64,000 nucleotides of DNA from sequence record MN445185.1. One strand, given 5' to 3'. Under the pieces are notes generated by a model. It was not told where the DNA came from. It saw only the letters and a program-made list of their open reading frames with translations, and made no database searches. A program made the translations under genes and the position numbers. Every line of letters begins with the position of its first letter. Positions within the stretch are counted from its first letter, which is position 1. Origin of the DNA: Escherichia phage vB_EcoM_EC001. This document shows positions 11,870-45,508 of the stretch, piece by piece.

Positions 11870-11919
11870 TTCACGTATCCCGCAAGTCTTATAGCTGAGT
11901 AAAAACCAAGGGGCCAGAC

Positions 11920-14211
11920 GTGGACTACAATTCACCATTTCGTCTTAGTCAAGACGAGTATCATCGCGACATTGACGTTATCGATGCGTACTACGAACAA
12001 CTGGCGCTCTACATTCATACCGTCACCAACGGGAAATATTCTTTGGAGTTCTGTCGACAGCAGGTCGAAGAAATGTTCCAACCTGGTGGTGAGTTAGTAC
12101 ACGAATTCCCCGTGTGTAAGATGTGGGTGCGCAATCAAAAGACCGGCGATCGCGAAGAAAAATACACCACGGTAGATAAACTGTTCCGTACAGTGATTGA
12201 TAAGCAGATTATTTCTGCACCGTCGCTGACCTTTTATCTGCCTGAGCACGTCAAGCGCTCTAAGCTTGCTGAATTTACCGCAGAGAACGTGCGTAAGCGT
12301 GCGGTTGTTAAGAAAGAGATGTACGCAGCAGGTGCTGCGGGTAATGAAGTTCTGCGTATTAACAAAAAGAACGAACAGAACGCTGTTAAGACGTTGAACA
12401 ACGGGATGTCGGGTGCATTCTCATCACCGTACACGGTAATCTTTAACCAGTCTTCGCACTCTGTATTGACGTCAACCTGCCGTACGGCTACATCGTTCGG
12501 TAACGCGGGCAACGAACGTCTACTGGGCGGTAATCGTCACTACGACACGCCGTCCCGTGTTATCGACCACTTACTGTCTATTGGTACACTGACTAACTTT
12601 GCTGAGTTCAAGAAGTGTATGGAACTCTATAACCTCCACTACCCAACAGTGGACGAGGTTATGGAAGTGGTTATGTACTCTGCAGAGTTTTACTTCCGTA
12701 ACGACGAAGGGCTGGAGTTCATTCGTCACTACGTCGGTAATTGTAGCCCGCTGGTACGTGCAGCGTTTGTCTACATGGGTGACTTCTACCACCTGGCGAA
12801 ATACAACGATGAATTCATGCGTGGGTTTATCGGTGCGCTGATTGCCGAGGAGATGGAAGACGAGATCACCGATTGGGATGCTGCTGAGCGCTCTATCGAC
12901 GGTGACATGCAGATCATTATCTCGCAGTTCCGTACTGATATCGTGCCGTTAGGTAAGTCGTTCTCTGACGTTAAACTCAAAGACGAAAACACGAACAAAG
13001 CGGAACCGTGGGATAAGCAGGAAAAATACAAAGAGCTGATTCGCTCAGCTGTGTATCTGCAGAAAACCATCGGTAAGTACGCGTGCTTGATTCGTAATAT
13101 CCTGACTACCAAAAACCTGCCGATTAACATTGCCAGGATGCCTGACGTGGTTCGTCGTGTCGGTGTGGTATCTGATACCGACTCCACGATGATGACTGCA
13201 CAGTGGTGGGCACAGTGGTATACCGGTCAACATTACGGTCGTGAAGCTACGCGCGTATCGGATGCGATGATTTATATTGCAACCCAGCACTTACGTCATC
13301 TGATGGCGAGCATGTCGGCGAACATTGGCGTGGCGAAAGAGCGTTTGTTCTTGTACGCAATGAAGAACGAATTTAAGTTCGACTCCTTTGCGTTAACCAC
13401 AAAAGCAAAACACTACTTCTCCATCATCACTGGTCAGGAAGGACAATTGAAGTCCGACCCTGAGTTAGAAGTTAAAGGTGTGTCTTTACGTACGTCAAAC
13501 ATACCGCCTGTGGTCATGAAAGAGTTCAAACGCACGATTAAAGAACTCTGTGAGATTGTAGCGCGCGGCGATAAGATTAAGATTCTGCCTCTGCTGGAAA
13601 AGGTTGCTGCAATTGAGCACGTTGTGGTGGACTCTATTCGTGCTGGTAAAGCAGGCTACCTGAAAACAACCAACGTCAAAGACCGTAGTGCGTACTCTGA
13701 AGATGATGAAAAGAGCTACCACTACCACCGCATGTACAACGCCATCTTTGGACCGAAGTACGGCTACCTGGACGAACCGCCTTATGATGCCGTGAAGCTT
13801 CCGGTAAACCTGGAGAACAAAACAGCCGTTAAAGAGTGGCTGGAAAACATTAAAGACCCGATGATTAAGACCACCGCAACACGGTGGTTCGAAGAAAACA
13901 ACTATCGTACCTATCGTACTCTGATACTGCCAGAGTTCCTGGTGGAAAACTTCGGTATTCCGCCGGAGCTGATTGATGCTGCAGACACACGTCGAAGCGC
14001 ATTCTCCACAGTAGAACCTTACTATCACATTCTGGAATGTCTGGGTGTGTTCATGATGGACAAGAACAGAACTCGTCTGCTTTCGGATTACTACGGCGAA
14101 TCTGTAGACTCGGTCAAGGAAGAATTAGGTAGCGGTGAGTACGTTAAGAAATCTGAACGTGATGGAGAGGAAGAAGATGGGGAAGAAGATGGGGAAGAAG
14201 CGGAGGAGTAA
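11920..14211 (+). CDS. family-B DNA polymerase, C-terminal fragment (fingers, motifs B and C, thumb); acidic C-terminal tail
   Basis: GTG start with AAGGGG RBS. Lys/Arg-rich helix then KTLNNGMSG fits motif B (K-x3-N-x3-G); VVSDTDS fits motif C (DTDS); ends EEEDGEEDGEEAEE. No exonuclease or motif A, which lie in minus-strand ORF 43654..45438. Confidence 0.6.
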   Translation: MDYNSPFRLSQDEYHRDIDVIDAYYEQLALYIHTVTNGKYSLEFCRQQVEEMFQPGGELVHEFPVCKMWVRNQKTGDREEKYTTVDKLFRTVIDKQIISAPSLTFYLPEHVKRSKLAEFTAENVRKRAVVKKEMYAAGAAGNEVLRINKKNEQNAVKTLNNGMSGAFSSPYTVIFNQSSHSVLTSTCRTATSFGNAGNERLLGGNRHYDTPSRVIDHLLSIGTLTNFAEFKKCMELYNLHYPTVDEVMEVVMYSAEFYFRNDEGLEFIRHYVGNCSPLVRAAFVYMGDFYHLAKYNDEFMRGFIGALIAEEMEDEITDWDAAERSIDGDMQIIISQFRTDIVPLGKSFSDVKLKDENTNKAEPWDKQEKYKELIRSAVYLQKTIGKYACLIRNILTTKNLPINIARMPDVVRRVGVVSDTDSTMMTAQWWAQWYTGQHYGREATRVSDAMIYIATQHLRHLMASMSANIGVAKERLFLYAMKNEFKFDSFALTTKAKHYFSIITGQEGQLKSDPELEVKGVSLRTSNIPPVVMKEFKRTIKELCEIVARGDKIKILPLLEKVAAIEHVVVDSIRAGKAGYLKTTNVKDRSAYSEDDEKSYHYHRMYNAIFGPKYGYLDEPPYDAVKLPVNLENKTAVKEWLENIKDPMIKTTATRWFEENNYRTYRTLILPEFLVENFGIPPELIDAADTRRSAFSTVEPYYHILECLGVFMMDKNRTRLLSDYYGESVDSVKEELGSGEYVKKSERDGEEEDGEEDGEEAEE

Positions 14212-14597: not shown

Positions 14598-14781
14598 CGG
14601 GAAGTCCACAGAGATGATAACCGCAATCCGTCGCGACCTCGAAGAACGGGGTTGCGTGGATATTGAGTTACATCAGGCAGGCGAAACGGTGCATATCACG
14701 GCATTGGATGCCAAACGGAAACGTAGTATCACTGTGTGGGGTAAACCGTACGCAAGTGATTTCATGGAGACGATAAAATGA
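14584..14781 (+). CDS. hypothetical small protein
   Basis: 65-aa ORF; stop overlaps next start (ATGA). Confidence 0.35.
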   Translation: MYRNSGKSTEMITAIRRDLEERGCVDIELHQAGETVHITALDAKRKRSITVWGKPYASDFMETIK

Positions 14782-15449
14782 GTGATGAACAAGATTTGAA
14801 GTTACCAATGTCAATACCCGAATTGACTTATCTCACCGTCAACCGAGACGATCTCATTAATCAAGTAAGCAAACGCGTAGAGAAAGCCTTTGCTCAGAGT
14901 GGTTATAGTGAAGCGATTCGTAATTTCCGTACACCACTGGCACAATCAGTTACACAACCGCATGGTAAAGGCACTCAGTTATTAGTCGCTGTTCACCCGA
15001 CCTCACCTCTGGCAAAACAGCTGCTTACTGAAATGAACTGGCACTATAAGTGTGTTGAAGAAGTTCAGTCAGCTAATATCGAATGGGCTATGTCGCACAA
15101 GTCTCGCGAAGTGGCGTTAGTCGAATACCTGCGAAAACTACCTTGGGTTGGTGATTCTGCTGTTCTCCGCGATGGCGTAGGTGGGCCGGAAGTCTGGTCA
15201 CCTAATGCGGTGATTGATGTCGATTTCGTGGTTATCGATCCGGGTAGCAATACGCATGTCGTTCGTTTTACGGATGCGAATGTCGCTTCTGTGTGTAAAC
15301 AGTTGGGTATTGCCTACTATCAATGCGGGAAGAAAAAGAAGTCGTCGAGTGTTGAAATTGAGGTGGCGTTTACTGCGGTACAAACCCTAGATCCCGCTGC
15401 GGTTGAACATGCTTTAAACTTCCTCAAGAACCACCCAGACAGCAAATAA
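14778..15449 (+). CDS. hypothetical protein
   Basis: 223-aa ORF ending at bidirectional terminator. Confidence 0.55.
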   Translation: MSDEQDLKLPMSIPELTYLTVNRDDLINQVSKRVEKAFAQSGYSEAIRNFRTPLAQSVTQPHGKGTQLLVAVHPTSPLAKQLLTEMNWHYKCVEEVQSANIEWAMSHKSREVALVEYLRKLPWVGDSAVLRDGVGGPEVWSPNAVIDVDFVVIDPGSNTHVVRFTDANVASVCKQLGIAYYQCGKKKKSSSVEIEVAFTAVQTLDPAAVEHALNFLKNHPDSK

Positions 15450-15531: not shown

Positions 15532-16599
15532 TTATTTTTCTTCTAGCTCTGTCGTCAACGGGATAATCAAATCCCGTTGGATAAAGTTATAGAAGGATTT
15601 GGTCAAACGTGTGAGGACTTTAGAGTCCACATAACGCGCCAAATCAACCAACATCGTACGTTTATGCTTTTCCATATTCCCCTGGTTGTATTGAAGACAA
15701 AACAGTGCCCAGTACCAGTTCACCATGTTCTGGTGCCAGGTGTTCTGCAGTGTTTGACCTGGTTCTCGAAAGACAATCAGTTCCAGTGCTGTGTGGCCTT
15801 CTTCATCAGGGTGTTGGAAGAACAATGGGATGTTGTTTAAGACTTGTCCCGGTAACGGGTTGGCAGCCAGTAGTTTACTACGGATGCCTTTTGCGTGCTT
15901 CACAGCTAAAGCTTGAAGCGGTGGAACAGGAATGACACGTAATGTTTCATCCGGTTCAATCTCTTTCCCAAAGGCTATCGCACGATGTATATTTACAAAG
16001 GCGATATCCATGTAGCTCGGCAACATGCGAGAGATCACATGTCGTTGGAGATACACAGGTGTGGCAATAGGTTCGGTACCGCGACTGTAGTGCTGCTGAC
16101 CTTTGACATATTGCCAAAGCAAAGCAACCAGGTTGATTTCGATCACCGTAACACCTCGGGGCCGTCCGTCACCGAACTTCCAATTGAGGTTGGTATACTC
16201 ATGGTAGAGGTAACGGGCGGGGGTGTAGTCGCGGAACGAAAGGTCTGGATTTACTGGGCGGGCTACGAGAGAGATTACCTCATCTTGGCCCTGGATAAAC
16301 TTGCTATTAAAGATTTGACCGTACTCACCAACAGACGTCAAGCGTAAGGCGTTACCGATCTGAACAAGTTTGCGACGGCAAGCCCATTCGATGTCTTCGT
16401 ACTCTGGTTCACCGGCATAGCCGATGGCAGACAACACCTGTTGCAACAAATGGCCATTACCAGCACTGCGATTAAGCTGTTCGAAGTAGTTGCGTATACG
16501 CTGGCTGTTGTTTTTTACGTGAGCCGCTAATGTTATAGCGGAGGGGTCCGTGCTGTGACCCTTTATGGCCACTTGGTTTAACTCGGCTTGGCTGAACAT
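15532..16599 (-). CDS. hypothetical protein
   Basis: Track ORF 15532..16620 starts at GTG; in-frame ATG at 16599 (MFSQAEL) is preceded by TAAGGAG; 355 aa. Confidence 0.65.
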   Translation of the reverse strand: MFSQAELNQVAIKGHSTDPSAITLAAHVKNNSQRIRNYFEQLNRSAGNGHLLQQVLSAIGYAGEPEYEDIEWACRRKLVQIGNALRLTSVGEYGQIFNSKFIQGQDEVISLVARPVNPDLSFRDYTPARYLYHEYTNLNWKFGDGRPRGVTVIEINLVALLWQYVKGQQHYSRGTEPIATPVYLQRHVISRMLPSYMDIAFVNIHRAIAFGKEIEPDETLRVIPVPPLQALAVKHAKGIRSKLLAANPLPGQVLNNIPLFFQHPDEEGHTALELIVFREPGQTLQNTWHQNMVNWYWALFCLQYNQGNMEKHKRTMLVDLARYVDSKVLTRLTKSFYNFIQRDLIIPLTTELEEK

Positions 16600-16653
16600 G
16601 GCAGACTCCTTAGATTCCACATAGGAAGTCAGTCACAGTCAAAAATATCTCAG

Positions 16654-16805: not shown

Positions 16806-18659
16806 ATGGTAAAAATCGTTGACTCTAACAACAACGCTCAGCAGAACAACACTCAGACTCAAGACACCGCACCACTGGGCGGTCTGGGCAACGAGACTGT
16901 AAAAGTGCAAACTGCTGTGCCGGGTACTTCTACTGTCAGCCAATTCGATAACGCATTTGGCATCCGCAACATCAGCACCTATGCAATGCACTTCACCAAC
17001 CTCCTGGATGAGCTGAAGAAAAGCAACGAATACCTCAACGCATTCCGCTGGGGCACCATCGTCGGCGTGGGTAACGAAATGGGTTCCGCGGCGTATGTCG
17101 CAGGCCAATGGCAGGGCCACTGGCTGTATGGTATCATCTTCTTTGAACGCGGTCAGTCTCTGCGTCTGAAAGAAACTACCAACAACGGCCAGGAAGACTA
17201 CTACACCATCACTGAACTGTTCAACAAAGACGTGCTGGCAGTAGTACAGAAAAACATCATGGAAGCGCATGGTCTGACCAATGCGAACTTCATGATCATC
17301 AACTCCGTACCAGACCTGGGTAAAGTTCTGGATGCTGAGTGGGCACGTACACTGATGGGTCAGATGATGATGGGCATCTTCGGTCGTATCGCAGGCTACC
17401 TGGGTACGCTGAACCTGCGTAAGCATGACCGTTATCAGGCCGCAGTAATGCCGCTGGAAGATGGTGCGGTTGTTGATGCTAACGGCCACGCACAGCGTGC
17501 TGATTTCGCAATCACCGTTGAGCACAGCCCAAGCAACGTAACCGATGCCACTCCGACTCTGCTGGACACCAATCAGGTACAGGTGTATCCGCGTGTATCC
17601 GGTACCGGTTTCGTCAATATGCGTTTCACCGGTCAGAAGCCTGTCGTTAACGGCGTCTACGACCTGAAACAGCTGCAGGCTGAAATCGTAGTAAGTCTGA
17701 TCGATTCTCAAACTGAAGGTGCAATGGCACCGTATGAACGTCAACTGCTGCTGCTGGCTGCATTTGCAGAAATCGCGGCAATCGGTGGCTGGCGTGACCT
17801 GTTTGTGAAACGTCTGAACAAACAAGATCGCAAGTTCTCCCGTGTGGCAGAATACCTGTCCTGGGGTGCTGACGCTCGTCCTGATGTATCCAAAATCGAC
17901 GGTAGCCGTGAAGCTATCGAAGGTTGCCTGGATATGTTCGCACCGCGTGAAGCAGCACTGGTAGTTAGCCATCGTGCCGGTAACGGCCTGGGTGGTCTGT
18001 CTACTTTGCTGTCTGAAATTGCGGTCGGTTACGACAACTCTCTGAAACAGCTGCTCGCTATTCTGAATTCCATGTCCCCGCGTGATCAGAACGGCGAAGT
18101 TGTTGCAGCGACCAGCTTCACTGCAGTATTTGCTTCTGCACTGAAAGCACAGCTGGGCGATGCCTTCAATGGTACCATCCATTGCAGCCACATCGTGAAA
18201 GCAGCCGTACCGACTGTTTCCGGTGTTTACACCGGTACTGCACAGAAACGTAGCTTCCAGGATATGGACCTGATTTCCGTTGTTACCAAACTGGGTGATA
18301 ACGCGAACGACGTCTATAGCTACCTGAACGCACAGTCCTACAGCCACCGTGAACTGAACGAGCGTCAACAGCGTATCTACATGCTGAAACTGGCCGCTTC
18401 TCTGTTCGCATCCAAAGCACCGCAAGCTACCGGTGAATCTCTGGATATGGCTATCAACCCGATCTTCGGTAAATGCCTGCTGGACTTCGTCCGTAACAAC
18501 TGCACCTGGTCTATGACTGGTGTAAATGCCTACAACACGATGGCGACCTCTCTGTTCTTCAACAACGGTGGGGAAGACTTCACGCTGTCTGGCAACGGCC
18601 TGTCTGCAAGCGGTTCCGATTTCGGTCTGGGCGTGACTCTGAGCAACTTCAAACTGTAA
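16806..18659 (+). CDS. abundant protein with host-like codon bias; candidate phage-nucleus shell protein (chimallin-like), function unconfirmed
   Basis: 617-aa ORF with strong preference for ctg/ccg/ggt/cgt/aac codons, two promoter-like motifs upstream, TAAGGAA RBS, low-complexity N-terminal tail, immediately upstream of the RNAP beta-prime N-terminal gene. Confidence is for the CDS, not the function. Confidence 0.7.
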   Translation: MVKIVDSNNNAQQNNTQTQDTAPLGGLGNETVKVQTAVPGTSTVSQFDNAFGIRNISTYAMHFTNLLDELKKSNEYLNAFRWGTIVGVGNEMGSAAYVAGQWQGHWLYGIIFFERGQSLRLKETTNNGQEDYYTITELFNKDVLAVVQKNIMEAHGLTNANFMIINSVPDLGKVLDAEWARTLMGQMMMGIFGRIAGYLGTLNLRKHDRYQAAVMPLEDGAVVDANGHAQRADFAITVEHSPSNVTDATPTLLDTNQVQVYPRVSGTGFVNMRFTGQKPVVNGVYDLKQLQAEIVVSLIDSQTEGAMAPYERQLLLLAAFAEIAAIGGWRDLFVKRLNKQDRKFSRVAEYLSWGADARPDVSKIDGSREAIEGCLDMFAPREAALVVSHRAGNGLGGLSTLLSEIAVGYDNSLKQLLAILNSMSPRDQNGEVVAATSFTAVFASALKAQLGDAFNGTIHCSHIVKAAVPTVSGVYTGTAQKRSFQDMDLISVVTKLGDNANDVYSYLNAQSYSHRELNERQQRIYMLKLAASLFASKAPQATGESLDMAINPIFGKCLLDFVRNNCTWSMTGVNAYNTMATSLFFNNGGEDFTLSGNGLSASGSDFGLGVTLSNFKL

Positions 18660-18741: not shown

Positions 18742-20076
18742 GTGAGAAAGGTACCAAAATTCTACGGAATATCCGGCCGGTTGGTTAGTCAGGATAACTA
18801 TTTGTCCGATTTGCAAATAGAAGCTGCTGCCAAAGGTATTAAACCACCCACTATTATTAACGATGTCGCCGTTAACGGGGATGCGATCGAGGTTGCTGAA
18901 CTTATCGATCGCATGGTACAGAACAGAATCGTTGACGAAGAACTGAACTCTGCACCGATTTGTAGTTTGGATTGTCCGGCACCGATCGCGCATCGTTACA
19001 ATCTCGGTTGTAAGTGTCCGACGTGTGGCTATGTTGTAACTGAACATCGAATTGAATCCGATGTCTGGTTACGTGCACCTGATGAAATGGGTAACTTCGT
19101 CAACCCACGATTCTGGGCAATGTTCAATGCTTTCTTTAATAGCAAGTTGAAGAAGTTTGAACGTAACAAGGTCACTATCGAACGCGGTAATGACTTGATG
19201 ATGTGGATGATTGACCCGTATTACCGTATAGAAGAACCAGACGGTAAACGCGCACATGCTGTGAAACGTGTATTGGAAGAACATGGTTTCGTTCGTGGCT
19301 TGCGCAATCTGGTTGATAACCACGTTAGTATCTTTAACATCCTTACCACGCCAGAAGCCTGGAAGGAAATCTTCGCACCTAATCGGCATAACGCCGCTGA
19401 AGGTGAACGCTTACGTTTACAATGGAAGGAGCTATTCGAAACGCAACGACACGCATTCTTCCCAAGACACTTACCGCTAATCTCCTCTAAACTTATCGTT
19501 ACTGAGGAAGGTCGTCGTGGTGTCATGGTAGACCCAGTGTTCACGGGTGCTATTGATGCGGTGAAAAATATCGCGTTGCTCTATACGCGGCGTAAAGCGA
19601 TCGAACCACGTTTTCTGATTAGTCGTGCTTTGAAAGCGAACCGTCAGTTAACGTACTTCCACATGGACTTCCGTCGTGAGTCTATGGAAGGTAAACCGGG
19701 TGACTATCGTGCGAAATTGGGTTCTACCCACATCCCGTTCGGTGGTCGTGCAACCATCTCACCTATCTCAGAACCACATGATGCCTGGAAGTTAAAAGCA
19801 CCATGGCGTTGGATGGTTGGGTTGATGTCGACCCACATCGAGAACAAACTGCTACGACGCGGTTATTCGTCACGGCAGTGTGAACGTATCGTTGCGAAAG
19901 CGGCAATGCAGTATGACCCGCTTGTAGATGAAATCTTTAAAGAACTGATTCGTGAATCCCCAGGCGGTCTTGGGATCATGGTCATACCGCTACGTAACCC
20001 AACGCTGGTACAGTTGTCTATTCAAACGCTGTACATCGATGAAGTTGTTACCGATGTTAACCAGTGTTCGCTGCGT
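18742..20076 (+). CDS. multisubunit RNA polymerase beta-prime-like subunit, N-terminal fragment, exon 1 (3-prime boundary approximate)
   Basis: GTG start. Zinc-ribbon CSLDCPAPIAHRYNLGCKCPTCG; LRNPTLVQLSIQ...CSL resembles RQPTLHRLGIQ...HPLVC just upstream of the catalytic loop. ORF continues 58 codons into the intron to stop at 20250. Confidence 0.65.
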
Positions 20077-20453
20077 ATCTCTGACCGTGTGATCAAGATG
20101 GCTAACGGTTCGAAAAGAGCCCCATCGGACGGGAAACCTCTGATGCGTATTCTCCTGAAATGCTGGGAAACCCTAAAGCGTATCTACCAGAAATGGGGAC
20201 GAAAGTCTGAAACAACAGATACGATGGCCTACGCTAAACAATACTGCTAACGGTTGTGATAATGGGTAATCAGCAGCGAAGCCTCGTGAGAGGAACGTTC
20301 AACGACTATCGCTGAAATGCGAGTAGGGGTCCCAGTGGACTTCGAAGTGGGAGAACACCTAAGGCGATAGCTATGGTGAAGATATAGTCTGTGCCTTATC
20401 GAGAGATAAGGAGGGTGTCTTAGCACACCTGCTGTATACGGAAACGGTATACG
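20077..20453 (+). ncRNA. group I self-splicing intron (no internal ORF), boundaries +/- about 10 nt
   Basis: Conserved core elements R (GTTCAACGACTA, 20297..20308) and S (AAGATATAGTC, 20379..20389) with complementary gacta/tagtc. Frame changes between flanking coding segments; beta-prime homology stops at CSLR and resumes at DKQDFDGDQ. Confidence 0.75.
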
Positions 20454-40923: not shown

Positions 40924-41808
40924 ATGCCCTTTTCACTATGGAACAGAGCCATGATTGATATTTATACCGACTATGCGGCTGTATTGACAGTCAACCGTCA
41001 CGAAGGTCGTGCAGCACCGATGCTAGATTTAGTGACGCTCGGTATGGATTACGGTTACGATGTGGCGTTATCCGATGTTTATAGCAACCCGTTGTCTGAC
41101 CCCGCGGACGAAACTGTCCGTCTGGAATCCATTATCGTGAAGGTAGCGGTTGGATTAGGCAACCGCCTCGGTATCGGACTTAATCCACAAATCGTCTTCC
41201 AGAAACCGAAAGAAACCGTACGTATCCTTCACGGTGTGTTGGAAGCCTTCGAGGAGTTCGAAGACAGTGATGCCCTTTACGGGATTGTCTCCTCTGGTGA
41301 GACACCAGAGTATATCCTGGAGAACATGTGTCGTTATGTTTACGGTGACGAAAACCTGCACTTCGAAGACCTGATTACTGTTGTCAGCCCACGCGTGCTT
41401 ACCGTGATGGAGAACTTCTTAGCAGCAGAGTCGTTGGAAAGCCAGAAACGAAACGGCGACGACGAGCGTCAACAGCGTATCGTCGCTTACTTGCGGTTGT
41501 TCCCTGAGAACCCGTCAGCGTTTGTCTTTATGAATCTGCCTGCTGAGCCAGACTTAACGGTGGTGCAGCAGTCGTTAGAGTTTCGCGTAGAGGACATTAG
41601 CGAAATTGATTTGCTGACGATGTATGCGGTGGGCTTATCGATTATTCCTCATGCGGAGTTTGATGGGGCTTACGGTGACTTAGAAAAGAACCTTGCCCTG
41701 TTGAACGTCGACAACGTCCCGCCTGGAGAAATCTTGCGGAAAGGATTGGAAGCGTTGAAAGTCATATACGCTAGTGGGGACGCGGAGGTAGATGATGAAC
41801 AAGATTGA
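40924..41808 (+). CDS. hypothetical protein (start may be 40951)
   Basis: 294-aa ORF; alternative in-frame ATG at 40951. Confidence 0.5.
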   Translation: MPFSLWNRAMIDIYTDYAAVLTVNRHEGRAAPMLDLVTLGMDYGYDVALSDVYSNPLSDPADETVRLESIIVKVAVGLGNRLGIGLNPQIVFQKPKETVRILHGVLEAFEEFEDSDALYGIVSSGETPEYILENMCRYVYGDENLHFEDLITVVSPRVLTVMENFLAAESLESQKRNGDDERQQRIVAYLRLFPENPSAFVFMNLPAEPDLTVVQQSLEFRVEDISEIDLLTMYAVGLSIIPHAEFDGAYGDLEKNLALLNVDNVPPGEILRKGLEALKVIYASGDAEVDDEQD

Positions 41809-43090
41809 CTATCTGGTCGCTGCGTGTAAAGCAGAAGCTTGGCGTAGACTGGTGTGGCGTATTGCGGTTTTCAACGTGGCAATCTTTAATGAAAAAGGTG
41901 AGCCACCTGAGCAATACGACCTGAACTATATTGACGGCTTGCCCCACTACTGGGAAAACGAAGAAATTAAATGGGTGCCGATTGAAGGGTGCAAAAAAGA
42001 TGAAGAGCTGTTCGTGCCAGAAGAGCAGTTTGAATTGCGTCCTGAGATGTACCCAGGTTTAGCTGGTCCCATTCCGACTACCGTGGGTCGCTATGTCTTT
42101 AACTGGATTGCTATCTATTACGCTTTCGGTACCCGTCTCCCGTATCTGGCAGAGTCTCGTGACCCACTAGCCTACCGTAAAGAGATGTATGAGCGTTGTG
42201 TGGAATATGATGACAGCGATCCAGACAACGAAGACGCGATTCGACCGTACATGATAGGACGCTTTGTAGGGGGTCTACACGAGCTTGCTCCGTTGTGTCG
42301 TGGGATTGCCCCAACAGGAACTATTAGAAGCCTTACAACGCATCCTGACGCGTATAAGGTACGAGATGCGTTGCTGTTGAAGCACAAAGACGAACTGGAT
42401 AACCCTGCGGTTATCGTTATGATTGAAAAAGCTCTCGATGAACTTGATAAAGAGTGGTTGAGTGGCGACCAGTCCGTTGAGTTCTACAGCTCTCCTAAAG
42501 CGCGTATGCGTCGCCGTAAGCTGATGCTGATGTACGGTATTCAGACCGCTTTTAAAGAAGGTGCAGATTTTACCTTAATCCCAACGAGCCTGATGGAAGT
42601 TGATCAGACCGGGATGAAGTATCTGGTAGAGAAATTCAATGATACGCGAGAAGGTTCCTTCATGCGTGGTGCAGAAACTGCCAAGGGCGGGGAGCAAGTA
42701 CGTATCATCCAGATGATCTTCCAGAACCACAAAATCGTGCCTGGTGATTGCGGGACAAAACTGACACATGCAGTTGTAATTAACCAGTATAACTACAAGC
42801 GTTATGTTGGCATGAACGCGATGGTTAACGGTAAAGTTACCCAACTCACCGAAGAGTATTTGAAAACGCAATTTGGTAAAGTTGTTCGACTCCGCCGACC
42901 CATCTTATGTCAGCAAGGTCACGTAGACTGTTGTGCGGCGTGCTCCTCTGCACACAAAGCAGAAGAGCCACGGGCAATCGCTGCGGATATCTCTTCCGGC
43001 TTCTCGAACGTTATGACCACTGCAATGGGTGCGATGCACGGTCGTGAAACCGTGGTTAAAGAGTACATCCCTAAATTCCACATCACCTAA
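41792..43090 (+). CDS. hypothetical protein
   Basis: 432-aa ORF overlapping previous gene end. Confidence 0.55.
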   Translation: MMNKIDYLVAACKAEAWRRLVWRIAVFNVAIFNEKGEPPEQYDLNYIDGLPHYWENEEIKWVPIEGCKKDEELFVPEEQFELRPEMYPGLAGPIPTTVGRYVFNWIAIYYAFGTRLPYLAESRDPLAYRKEMYERCVEYDDSDPDNEDAIRPYMIGRFVGGLHELAPLCRGIAPTGTIRSLTTHPDAYKVRDALLLKHKDELDNPAVIVMIEKALDELDKEWLSGDQSVEFYSSPKARMRRRKLMLMYGIQTAFKEGADFTLIPTSLMEVDQTGMKYLVEKFNDTREGSFMRGAETAKGGEQVRIIQMIFQNHKIVPGDCGTKLTHAVVINQYNYKRYVGMNAMVNGKVTQLTEEYLKTQFGKVVRLRRPILCQQGHVDCCAACSSAHKAEEPRAIAADISSGFSNVMTTAMGAMHGRETVVKEYIPKFHIT

Positions 43091-43653: not shown

Positions 43654-45438
43654 TTAGAACCCGCAGATGTACTCCATAGGCTCTGTCACTACTTCCCCTT
43701 GCTTACGTAAGAACGTAGACAGGACAGTGTCTTTGTCCGGTAAGCAGAAGAAGTCTGTCGCTATTTCCATGGCATTAACTCGCCCAGCAGTTAAGTTGAC
43801 GCCCGTGCGACGTCGAATCTCTTCACTAACCCCATTGATGGACAGTAGTTCGATGAGTGTGGTCTCACGAGACTGGTTCATCATGTTTGTGGCCGAAGGG
43901 TAGGCCTGGGTTAAGTCCGCATCCGCAGTTTGTCCACGGAACGCAGAGTAATATTCGTCAATCTCCTCCAGAATGTTATTCAGACCGTTCTCAGCATTCA
44001 TACATGCTGTCAGGGTAACAATCCAACCGTCTGTACCGATAACCTCTTCATCGTAATCGTTACGCATTGCAGACCCTACGGAACCGATGACGTATCCTTT
44101 GTCATACAGATAATAGGTAAAGGCCACACAGATACGTTTTGGTAACGACGGGAAGATATCGTACATCGAGAAACCTGCCAGAATGGATATTGCTGAAGAC
44201 AAGTCGTTCGTCTTCTTATCCAACAACACGATTAACAAGTTATCCATCATGTTGTATACGGCATATTCGGCAGGGTAGTCCCGTTGTGCTTTTATGTGCC
44301 ATTGCAGGTTATCTTCATACGGCAGTCCAGGAATGTCGAGTTTGTGTAAACCGAGTTCGGTGTACAGTATGGCAGATAACTTGTACGAAGGACGTTGCCC
44401 TTCGTGGACACGCAACGAACGGAATAACACCATGGCATCCACACAGTAGAAAGACGCAGTACAGTAGAGTACGTGCCACTGTTGAGACGGTGCTTTGGTG
44501 AGTGACTTGGATTCCGTCTTTTTGTTCGCCTGGTCTTCTTTAAACCACAGACGACGGTATTTCTCCGGAACATCCGGATGGTTAAAGACGCCCAGTGGAT
44601 CGATACCTTCTTTCTGCAAGGTTTCCAACATGCGTGAAATATCGAACTGGTGGTTCCATGCGACCAGCAAATCAGGAAGACGTGGATGAATTTCTTCGAA
44701 CATCCTGACGATGCACTGCCCTGCCGTAGCGCAGGTATAGGTGAATATTTTATAACCGCTGATAATGTCTTTGGTCTTTGTCACCTTTTCGCCAGTCTTT
44801 TTGTCTTTCTCATCGAATTCGATTTTGCTTAAGAGTTCCTGCGCTTTTTTGAGAATGACTTCTTCCGCGTTTTTACCGATGCGGTCCATGTAGTTCTTAG
44901 CACCAAAGAAATGGATTTCGTCGTCTAAGATAAACGACACGATCCACGGTTCCTTCGTGCCGTCCATTTCGTTGGTCTCCACGTCGTATACGCAAAGACG
45001 GTTAGGGCTGATGTTGTTCGGCCAGCGCTTTAAGTATTTCTGTTTAATCCAGCTGGTAATCGGTAAGTCGGCCCAATAAACGTACGGGCTAGTACAGACT
45101 CGGCGCAGGTTCTTTTTCGGGTCAGGGAAACGTGCACCTAAACCCATCTGCAACGTCTTCGCCATCTGCGCATCAGTAGTCCAGAGTTCTTGACATTTTC
45201 CTTTTTCTTCGAACTCTTTTTTCTCCTGGTGGTTACGATATTCTTCACGGGTAACGTACACCGGACGCTTTAAATTCTCACGCATTACCAAGCGCGGGAT
45301 AAGCCTGCCATCCTTAGTATGGATGACCTCTTTGATGAGGACAAAGTCATTTTCTTTTTCTTCGTCCGTCGCATAAGCGACGTGCTTGCACTCTTTAGCG
45401 ATGACATCCTCGGGTGCGTAATAGGTATTGATTTCCAT
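43654..45438 (-). CDS. family-B DNA polymerase, N-terminal fragment (3-prime to 5-prime exonuclease domain plus palm motif A)
   Basis: Exo I LCVYDVETNEMDG (D-x-E), Exo II WNHQFDISRML, Exo III YAVYNMMDNLL (Y-x3-D), motif A DLTQAYPSA (D-x2-SLYPS-like). ORF stops about 80 aa after motif A; motifs B and C are in 11920..14211. Confidence 0.65.
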   Translation of the reverse strand: MEINTYYAPEDVIAKECKHVAYATDEEKENDFVLIKEVIHTKDGRLIPRLVMRENLKRPVYVTREEYRNHQEKKEFEEKGKCQELWTTDAQMAKTLQMGLGARFPDPKKNLRRVCTSPYVYWADLPITSWIKQKYLKRWPNNISPNRLCVYDVETNEMDGTKEPWIVSFILDDEIHFFGAKNYMDRIGKNAEEVILKKAQELLSKIEFDEKDKKTGEKVTKTKDIISGYKIFTYTCATAGQCIVRMFEEIHPRLPDLLVAWNHQFDISRMLETLQKEGIDPLGVFNHPDVPEKYRRLWFKEDQANKKTESKSLTKAPSQQWHVLYCTASFYCVDAMVLFRSLRVHEGQRPSYKLSAILYTELGLHKLDIPGLPYEDNLQWHIKAQRDYPAEYAVYNMMDNLLIVLLDKKTNDLSSAISILAGFSMYDIFPSLPKRICVAFTYYLYDKGYVIGSVGSAMRNDYDEEVIGTDGWIVTLTACMNAENGLNNILEEIDEYYSAFRGQTADADLTQAYPSATNMMNQSRETTLIELLSINGVSEEIRRRTGVNLTAGRVNAMEIATDFFCLPDKDTVLSTFLRKQGEVVTEPMEYICGF

Positions 45439-45508
45439 GGTCTACTCTCAAATATGGTGTCTGCTATACTGATTTGTGGGTAACGTATTTTCTAAAAGGA
45501 ACGTCTAA

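Follow-up and report, generated by a model that had tools for sequence, protein, structure and literature searches.

Two genes encode complementary parts of one DNA polymerase

The 64,000-nucleotide (nt) stretch of Escherichia phage vB_EcoM_EC001 DNA analyzed here (MN445185.1; its full length is called the window below) carries two intact open reading frames (ORFs) that encode complementary, nonoverlapping parts of one family B DNA polymerase (PolB). The minus-strand gene specifies a 594-amino-acid (aa) chain, the exonuclease half, and the plus-strand gene, which begins with a GTG codon, specifies a 763-aa chain, the polymerase half (Table 1). A first-pass annotation, made from the letters alone, had placed Exo I, Exo II, Exo III, and palm motif A on the 594-aa product and had located motifs B and C about 30 kb away on the other strand. 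We found all of these motifs where it had put them, each conserved without exception in the alignments described below and far beyond what chance matches would give, and the two genes are separated by 29.4 kb on opposite strands.

The first 20 kb of the window is base-for-base collinear with Escherichia phage vB_EcoM_Lh1B (98.5% identity) and closely matches the SPN3US group of Salmonella jumbo phages (genus Seoulvirus). The 594-aa protein is 100% identical to SPN3US YP_009153338, which RefSeq labels "DNA polymerase," and to ~20 other records; the identical proteins are annotated as "DNA polymerase," "T4-like DNA polymerase," "DNA polymerase II," or "hypothetical protein." The 763-aa protein is the ortholog of SPN3US YP_009153312 (also "DNA polymerase" in RefSeq) and is 99.9 to 100% identical to the SPN3US and Lh1B proteins. 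In the SPN3US regions inspected, the only RefSeq DNA polymerase labels are those of the counterparts of these two genes.

Table 1. Features of the split polymerase locus, with positions numbered from the first letter of the window
Feature	Position	Strand	Remarks
SH3-fold protein gene, 136 aa	11418..11828	+	Pfam PF20287 SH3DP, E = 3e-35; directly upstream of the polymerase half
Promoter-like block ACGTATCCCGCAAGTCTTATAGCTGA	11873..11898	+	Ends 21 nt upstream of the GTG codon that starts the polymerase half; preceded by a T-run
PolB fingers/palm/thumb subunit	11920..14211	+	Ortholog of phiKZ gp50 and EL gp21
Motif B, K157-TLNNGMSG165	12388..12414	+	Second fingers helix (helix 143-168); aligns to RB69 K560...G568
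All-helical lineage-specific insert, residues ~211-395	12550..13104	+	Between the post-motif-B palm helix and motif C; helices only by DSSP on the model
Motif C, S418-DTDST423	13171..13188	+	Metal-binding D419, D421; aligns to RB69 GDTDS 620-624
K497-H-Y499, KKRY equivalent	13408..13416	+	K497 = RB69 K706, Y499 = Y708
PolB N-terminal/exonuclease subunit	43654..45438	-	N-terminal domain, DEDDy 3'-5' exonuclease, motif A, helical tail; ortholog of phiKZ gp82
C-terminal helical tail, residues 530-594	43657..43851	-	Helices at 539-593; no RB69 counterpart
Palm motif A, D508-LTQAYPS515	43894..43917	-	Aligns to RB69 D411, Y416-P417
Exonuclease active-site span, Exo I to Exo III	44242..44985	-	D152/E154, D266, Y395/D399
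Promoter-like block ACGTTACCCACAAATCAGTATAGCAGA	45460..45486	-	Ends 21 nt upstream of the ATG codon that starts the exonuclease half

Conserved motifs and predicted structures of the two chains

Conservation was assessed in alignments of 58 homologs of each chain that reach down to ~30 to 35% identity; 94 matches were gathered for the 594-aa chain and 346 for the 763-aa chain, and the addition of phage EL brought the alignment of the latter to 59 sequences. As the reference we used an alignment of canonical gp43 polymerases, in which all textbook RB69 catalytic positions come out invariant.

In the 594-aa chain, the exonuclease motifs read D152-V-E154, N262-HQFD266, and Y395-NMMD399, and motif A reads D508-LTQAYPSA. 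Residues D152, E154, D266, Y395, D399, D506, D508, Y513, and P514 are each invariant (58/58), and profile alignments equate the exonuclease residues with RB69 D114/E116, D222, and Y323/D327, the Exo I to Exo III set of a DEDDy exonuclease. PHROG 3011 ("DNA polymerase") matches the ORF over profile positions 1 to 574 of 576 (E = 4e-251). A Pfam scan of this ORF gave no match even at E ≤ 1, and phmmer searches of Protein Data Bank (PDB) sequences with either ORF returned nothing relevant, so profiles were required. When solved structures were searched, the profile of the 594-aa chain matched RB69 gp43 (E = 4e-6) in three collinear segments that correspond to Exo I/II, Exo III, and motif A. An AlphaFold2 (AF2) model of the chain is confident over residues 1 to 460, where the predicted local distance difference test score (pLDDT) is mostly >90, and its best Foldseek matches are all full-length PolBs (RB69 gp43, E = 2e-12 over ~470 columns). 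In the C-terminal tail, N555 is invariant and R543, L549, G552, A556, and P567 are nearly so.

The 763-aa chain matches Pfam PF20286 divDNApol ("Divergent Family B DNA polymerase") over profile positions 3 to 705 of 705 (E = 4e-284) and PHROG 2927 with an E value of 0, and its profile picked out the motif B region of Pol zeta among solved structures. Residues K157, N160, N161, G165, D419, D421, K497, and Y499 are each invariant (59/59). The AF2 model (pLDDT 86.7; predicted TM-score [pTM] 0.82) has two long fingers helices, including the first one, with R127/K131, and the one with motif B; these are followed by a canonical palm helix, the ~190-aa insert, the KxY sheet, and the thumb. Foldseek ranked RB69/T4 gp43 as the best match to this model (E = 1.3e-4), with TM-scores that are low owing to the insert. 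Across the models of both chains, the top matches were the RB69, T4, archaeal, and Pol epsilon PolBs, and the overall fold is that of a PolB.

Some conserved positions of the 763-aa chain lie outside the canonical PolB motifs. In the helical insert, D288 (window 12781-12783) is present in 59/59 sequences and D329 (12904-12906) in 54/59. Residues 717 to 725 (TRLLSDYYG, window 14068-14094) include invariant S722 and near-invariant L720 and D723; this segment is the counterpart of the clamp-binding-like "TRLISDFY" motif described for phiKZ-like phages, for which no clamp is known (Kazlauskas & Venclovas 2011). It is followed by an acidic, disordered C-terminal tail, EEEDGEEDGEEAEE (window 14161-14208).

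The break point and the placement of motif A

Alignment of the exonuclease-chain profile with the canonical gp43 profile by hhalign (Prob 98.4%, E = 4.5e-15) is unbroken from ORF residues 117 to 528, which correspond to RB69 79-431. It ends with ADADLTQAYPSATNMMNQSRETT opposite VMSFDLTSLYPSIIRQVNISPET and pairs D508 with D411 and Y513 with Y416; the predicted roles are metal binding for the Asp (D508) and that of the steric gate for the Tyr (Y513). The first-pass annotation had allowed that this ORF could belong to a standalone exonuclease family lacking a palm motif A, and the pairing of D508 with RB69 D411 speaks against that outcome. The tail of the chain aligned by itself (residues 455 to 594) has RB69 403-429, which is motif A, as its single best match. 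In the polymerase chain, residues 100 to 183 align to RB69 457-586 and, in a chimera profile, residues 493 to 570 align to RB69 702-772 (Prob 91%, E = 9e-7). The claim that the PolB is broken between motif A and the fingers is borne out by these alignments, and the proposed profile and structure searches found each ORF to cover the half that the other lacks, with PolBs as the best matches of both AF2 models.

By the same alignments, the break maps between motif A and the fingers, at RB69 431-457, inside a ~140-residue lineage-specific expansion. Between the aligned blocks RB69 has ~26 residues, whereas the phiKZ-type family has ~66 on one chain and ~99 on the other, and these junction residues are conserved and largely helical. 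In models of the single chains, the motif A region (468 to 530) of the exonuclease chain has a pLDDT of <50, and motif C of the polymerase chain is a coil rather than a hairpin. A palm sheet that needs both chains for its completion would be expected to leave these two elements unfolded in isolation.

Conservation of the two-gene arrangement

Homologs of the 594-aa chain were found in 294 phage records and those of the 763-aa chain in 300, phiKZ (PHIKZ050) among them, with the same genus counts for both halves (Pseudomonas, 81; Erwinia, 62; Vibrio, 23; Serratia, 21; Aeromonas, 20; Klebsiella, 16; Ralstonia, 13). A profile search of 1.84 billion representatives recovered 621 members of the exonuclease-half family at E ≤ 1e-30. 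The 150 representatives listed from this search are 490 to 690 aa long and cover the profile through the tail, with one 894-aa outlier. No fused PolB was present among the 94 and 120 homologs of the two chains or among these 150 representatives; the outlier (P0215) was considered as a candidate fusion and rejected, as its additional 330 aa are an acidic stretch with no relationship to the polymerase half. An arrangement that recurs in ~300 phage records, with no fused form among these representatives, is not an assembly error. The first-pass annotation had also named a full-length PolB elsewhere as a finding that would undo its reading, and a search of the window's 359 six-frame ORFs with the canonical gp43 profile revealed no further PolB.

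Records of Salmonella phages SPFM1, 6, 7, 9, 10, 12, 15, and 20 (P0039-P0053, P0181, P0211) combined high hidden Markov model scores with only 3 to 16% BLAST coverage. Frameshift corruption, not real variation, seems to explain their copies of both polymerase genes, and these low-coverage records were excluded from the alignments.

Relation to known split polymerases

The window pair is the phiKZ-type split PolB of the Chimalliviridae, which consists of gp50 and gp82 in phiKZ and of gp21 and a separate exonuclease ORF in EL: it matches PF20286, PHROG 2927, and PHROG 3011 end to end, and the SH3DP neighbor is present. The discovery of these polymerases, with exonuclease and polymerase on separate chains, was reported by Kazlauskas & Venclovas (2011), who put both catalytic aspartates (EL D229 and D398) on the polymerase chain; our mapping differs from this description in that motif A (D508) lies on the exonuclease chain. 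"Split subunit DNA polymerase" is the term used in the SPN3US literature, and the split has been published also by Thomas (2016) and Iyer (2021). The latter study described the same helical insert and a conserved SH3DP neighborhood and proposed SH3DP as an accessory subunit. Both phiKZ gp50 and gp82 are reported to be imported into the phage nucleus. The split is therefore real, family-wide, and already known, having been published since 2011-2012 and being reflected in RefSeq, and it adds no new biological category. What the present analysis contributes is a modest refinement, namely, evidence for a composite site and alignments that favor motif A on the exonuclease half over its 2011 placement.

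In the literature searched, we found no enzymology of a phiKZ-type PolB; the CRISPRi-ART and size exclusion chromatography-mass spectrometry (SEC-MS) studies contain nothing on the two polymerase genes, and the PDB copy searched holds no phiKZ-type polymerase structure. Nucleus-forming jumbo phages replicate their DNA inside a protein-walled compartment, and this polymerase lies at the core of the machinery that does so. To our knowledge, this machinery includes no recognized clamp or primase, and its polymerase has never been characterized biochemically or structurally. If motif A resides on the other chain, then phiKZ gp50 or an SPN3US gp18-type protein expressed alone would be expected to show no activity.

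A PolB likewise cut between motifs A and B, and likewise in need of trans assembly, is the T4-type gp43A/gp43B of Acinetobacter phage ZZ1. There, the 502-aa gp43A carries Exo I and motif A (D409); motifs B and C and KKRY fall on the 390-aa gp43B. The ZZ1 genes lie on the same strand, 1.9 kb apart with six small ORFs between them, whereas 29 kb and a change of strand separate the window genes. ZZ1 gp43 is cut at the fingertip (~RB69 510-516), after the first fingers helix, while the cut in the window pair precedes the whole fingers (RB69 431-457). Neither the adjacent, same-strand genes nor the fingertip cut of the T4-type layout is thus seen in the window, and the phiKZ-type split is a fixed trait of a whole phage family, whereas the T4-type split is sporadic. 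Aeh1 provides a further example of a T4-type split gp43. The single-chain gp43 of RB69 and T4 has the same motif order (Exo I to III, A, B, C, KKRY) and is the best structural match for both halves; unlike the phiKZ-type enzyme, it is one polypeptide that works with a sliding clamp and has no counterpart of the 190-aa helical insert preceding motif C. A different route to two genes is seen in Pseudomonas phages MIJ3 and PA5oct, whose PolB is associated with an intein and an HNH domain; in MIJ3, a split intein and a homing endonuclease lie between adjacent genes. No intein or Hint motif was recognized at the junction of the window pair, although no search aimed at inteins was made. Outside phages, Methanothermobacter and Nanoarchaeum also encode PolB in two genes.

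A composite active site and its alternatives

Very probably, the two ORFs encode the two chains of a single heterodimeric replicative polymerase, namely, the "divergent PolB" of the phiKZ type found in nucleus-forming jumbo phages. As the split is published and family-wide in phiKZ-like phages, trans assembly is the accepted view, and an inactive polymerase is very unlikely. In such a complex, the proofreading (DEDDy) exonuclease would come from the 594-aa chain, together with the N-terminal domain and the motif A-bearing first strand of the palm, while the 763-aa chain would supply the fingers (R127/K131, K157/N161), the remainder of the palm (D419/D421, K497/Y499), the ~190-aa helical insert, and the thumb. 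Deoxynucleoside triphosphates would then be bound by R127, K131, K157, and N161 and the primer by K497/Y499, all on the polymerase chain. The tail of the exonuclease chain could insert its motif A strand beside the motif C hairpin of its partner, so that a two-metal site would form only in the complex, with residues 530 to 594 of the exonuclease chain and 1 to 96 of the polymerase chain as the putative docking interface. Both genes may be coexpressed from similar promoter-like elements, and the SH3DP protein is a candidate third subunit. The fuller proposal is more tentative, and we regard it as plausible but a little short of probable: a composite active site to which the exonuclease chain contributes the motif A Asp and the steric-gate Tyr in trans, with no synthesis in the absence of that chain; a docking module of ~140 residues; a promoter-like element shared by the two genes; and a corresponding correction of the 2011 map.

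Several observations weigh against the heterodimer reading. The hhalign match of polymerase-chain residues 100 to 183 is weak when taken alone (Prob 28%, E = 6e-4), as is the alignment of the exonuclease-chain tail alone to motif A (Prob 8%, E = 0.004), and the distance from motif A to motif B across the junction is ~243 residues, compared with 149 in RB69. The polymerase chain has an invariant Asp of its own, D288, and the two catalytic aspartates were both modeled on that chain by Kazlauskas & Venclovas (2011). The last two points lead to a different arrangement, in which the counterparts of EL D229 and D398 make the 763-aa chain self-sufficient, the 594-aa chain serves only as a separate exonuclease for proofreading, and DLTQAYPS is vestigial. 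Both aspartates are kept in the three phiKZ-like phages considered in 2011, for which a three-dimensional model was built, and Iyer (2021) mentions that the exonuclease could be a "standalone protein." We consider a self-sufficient polymerase chain unlikely, since the candidates for a motif A on it do not hold up. The EL D229 column is occupied by N226 in the window protein, and a carboxylate is absent in 16 of the 59 members (D42/N16/E1); moreover, a motif A at this position would come after motif B, contrary to PolB order, and the position lies, like D288, in the all-helical insert, within a segment (205 to 430) that aligns to canonical PolB at motif C only. D288 was rejected on the same grounds of location. 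The look-alike D19-VIDAYY was also discarded, as its Asp is replaced by Asn in part of the family (D38/N17) and residues 1 to 99, in which it lies, gave nothing relevant against canonical PolB and do not align to motif A. A vestigial motif A is difficult to reconcile with the retention of D506, D508, Y513, and P514 in 58/58 sequences down to 30% identity and of the tail in 150/150 listed representatives. The wider sampling favors the view that the motif A assignment of 2011, made from three genomes, does not extend to the family.

Two further explanations were weighed. The proteins could be independent, or one of them catalytically dead, as with a nuclease acting alone beside a noncatalytic DNA-binding protein, with replication carried out by another polymerase; inactivity had been raised by the first-pass annotation as the alternative to assembly in trans. 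This is highly improbable, given that neither chain shows any variation at its PolB catalytic residues, that the window holds no other PolB-like ORF, and that RefSeq applies polymerase labels to these two alone in the regions inspected; Iyer (2021), furthermore, regards the divergent PolB as the replicase that defines group 1 jumbo phages. Least credible of all, to the point of being practically negligible, is that the split is an artefact of misassembly, of a rearranged record, or of a pseudogenized polymerase. Apart from the unusual arrangement itself, all that could be cited for it are the frameshifted copies in some SPFM phage records, whereas both ORFs are intact and 100% identical in ~20 independent genomes, and the two-gene layout recurs in ~300 phage records from >20 host genera with the catalytic residues under purifying conservation.

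Upstream elements and neighboring genes

The blocks that precede the two polymerase genes share a 26- to 27-nt architecture, ACGTWWCCCRCAARTC-N(1-2)-TATAGCWGA. TATAGCWGA has no other occurrence in the 64 kb, but the pattern was derived post hoc from the two sites themselves, which makes statistics on it circular. Erwinia phages Asesino, Stratton, and pEa_SNUABM_43 retain the TATAG core, and mostly ACGT as well, in front of both genes. The common block is a possible phage promoter for coregulation of both halves.

A third copy of the promoter-like architecture, TTTTTTACGTGAGCCGCTAATGTTATAGCGGAG, is found at window 16511-16545 (+), inside the 5' end of the minus-strand ORF 15532..16620 and ~270 nt upstream of a 617-aa ORF (16806..18659; PHROG 8316). 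From the EL gene order, the latter ORF was considered as a chimallin gene; this identity was unconfirmed, and neither BLASTP against the EL shell protein nor a PDB search gave a match.

The SH3DP gene, whose Pfam family is titled "SH3 fold domain associated with phage DNA polymerases," directly precedes the polymerase half, and it is possible that its product is a third subunit or a processivity factor. On the other side, between the polymerase half and the minus-strand gene 15532..16620, lies a 223-aa ORF at 14778-15449 (+; PHROG 14096). The SPN3US RefSeq record lacks a gene of similar size at the corresponding point, where the offset in coordinates between the two genomes increases by ~660 bp; the region looks like a strain-specific insertion.

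Beta-subunit fragments of the multisubunit RNA polymerase of the phage are encoded at 18742-20250 (+) and 41792-43090 (+) (PHROG 2987 and 2962), within a few kilobases of each polymerase half. The scattering of large enzymes over split genes is a general habit of this phage genome.

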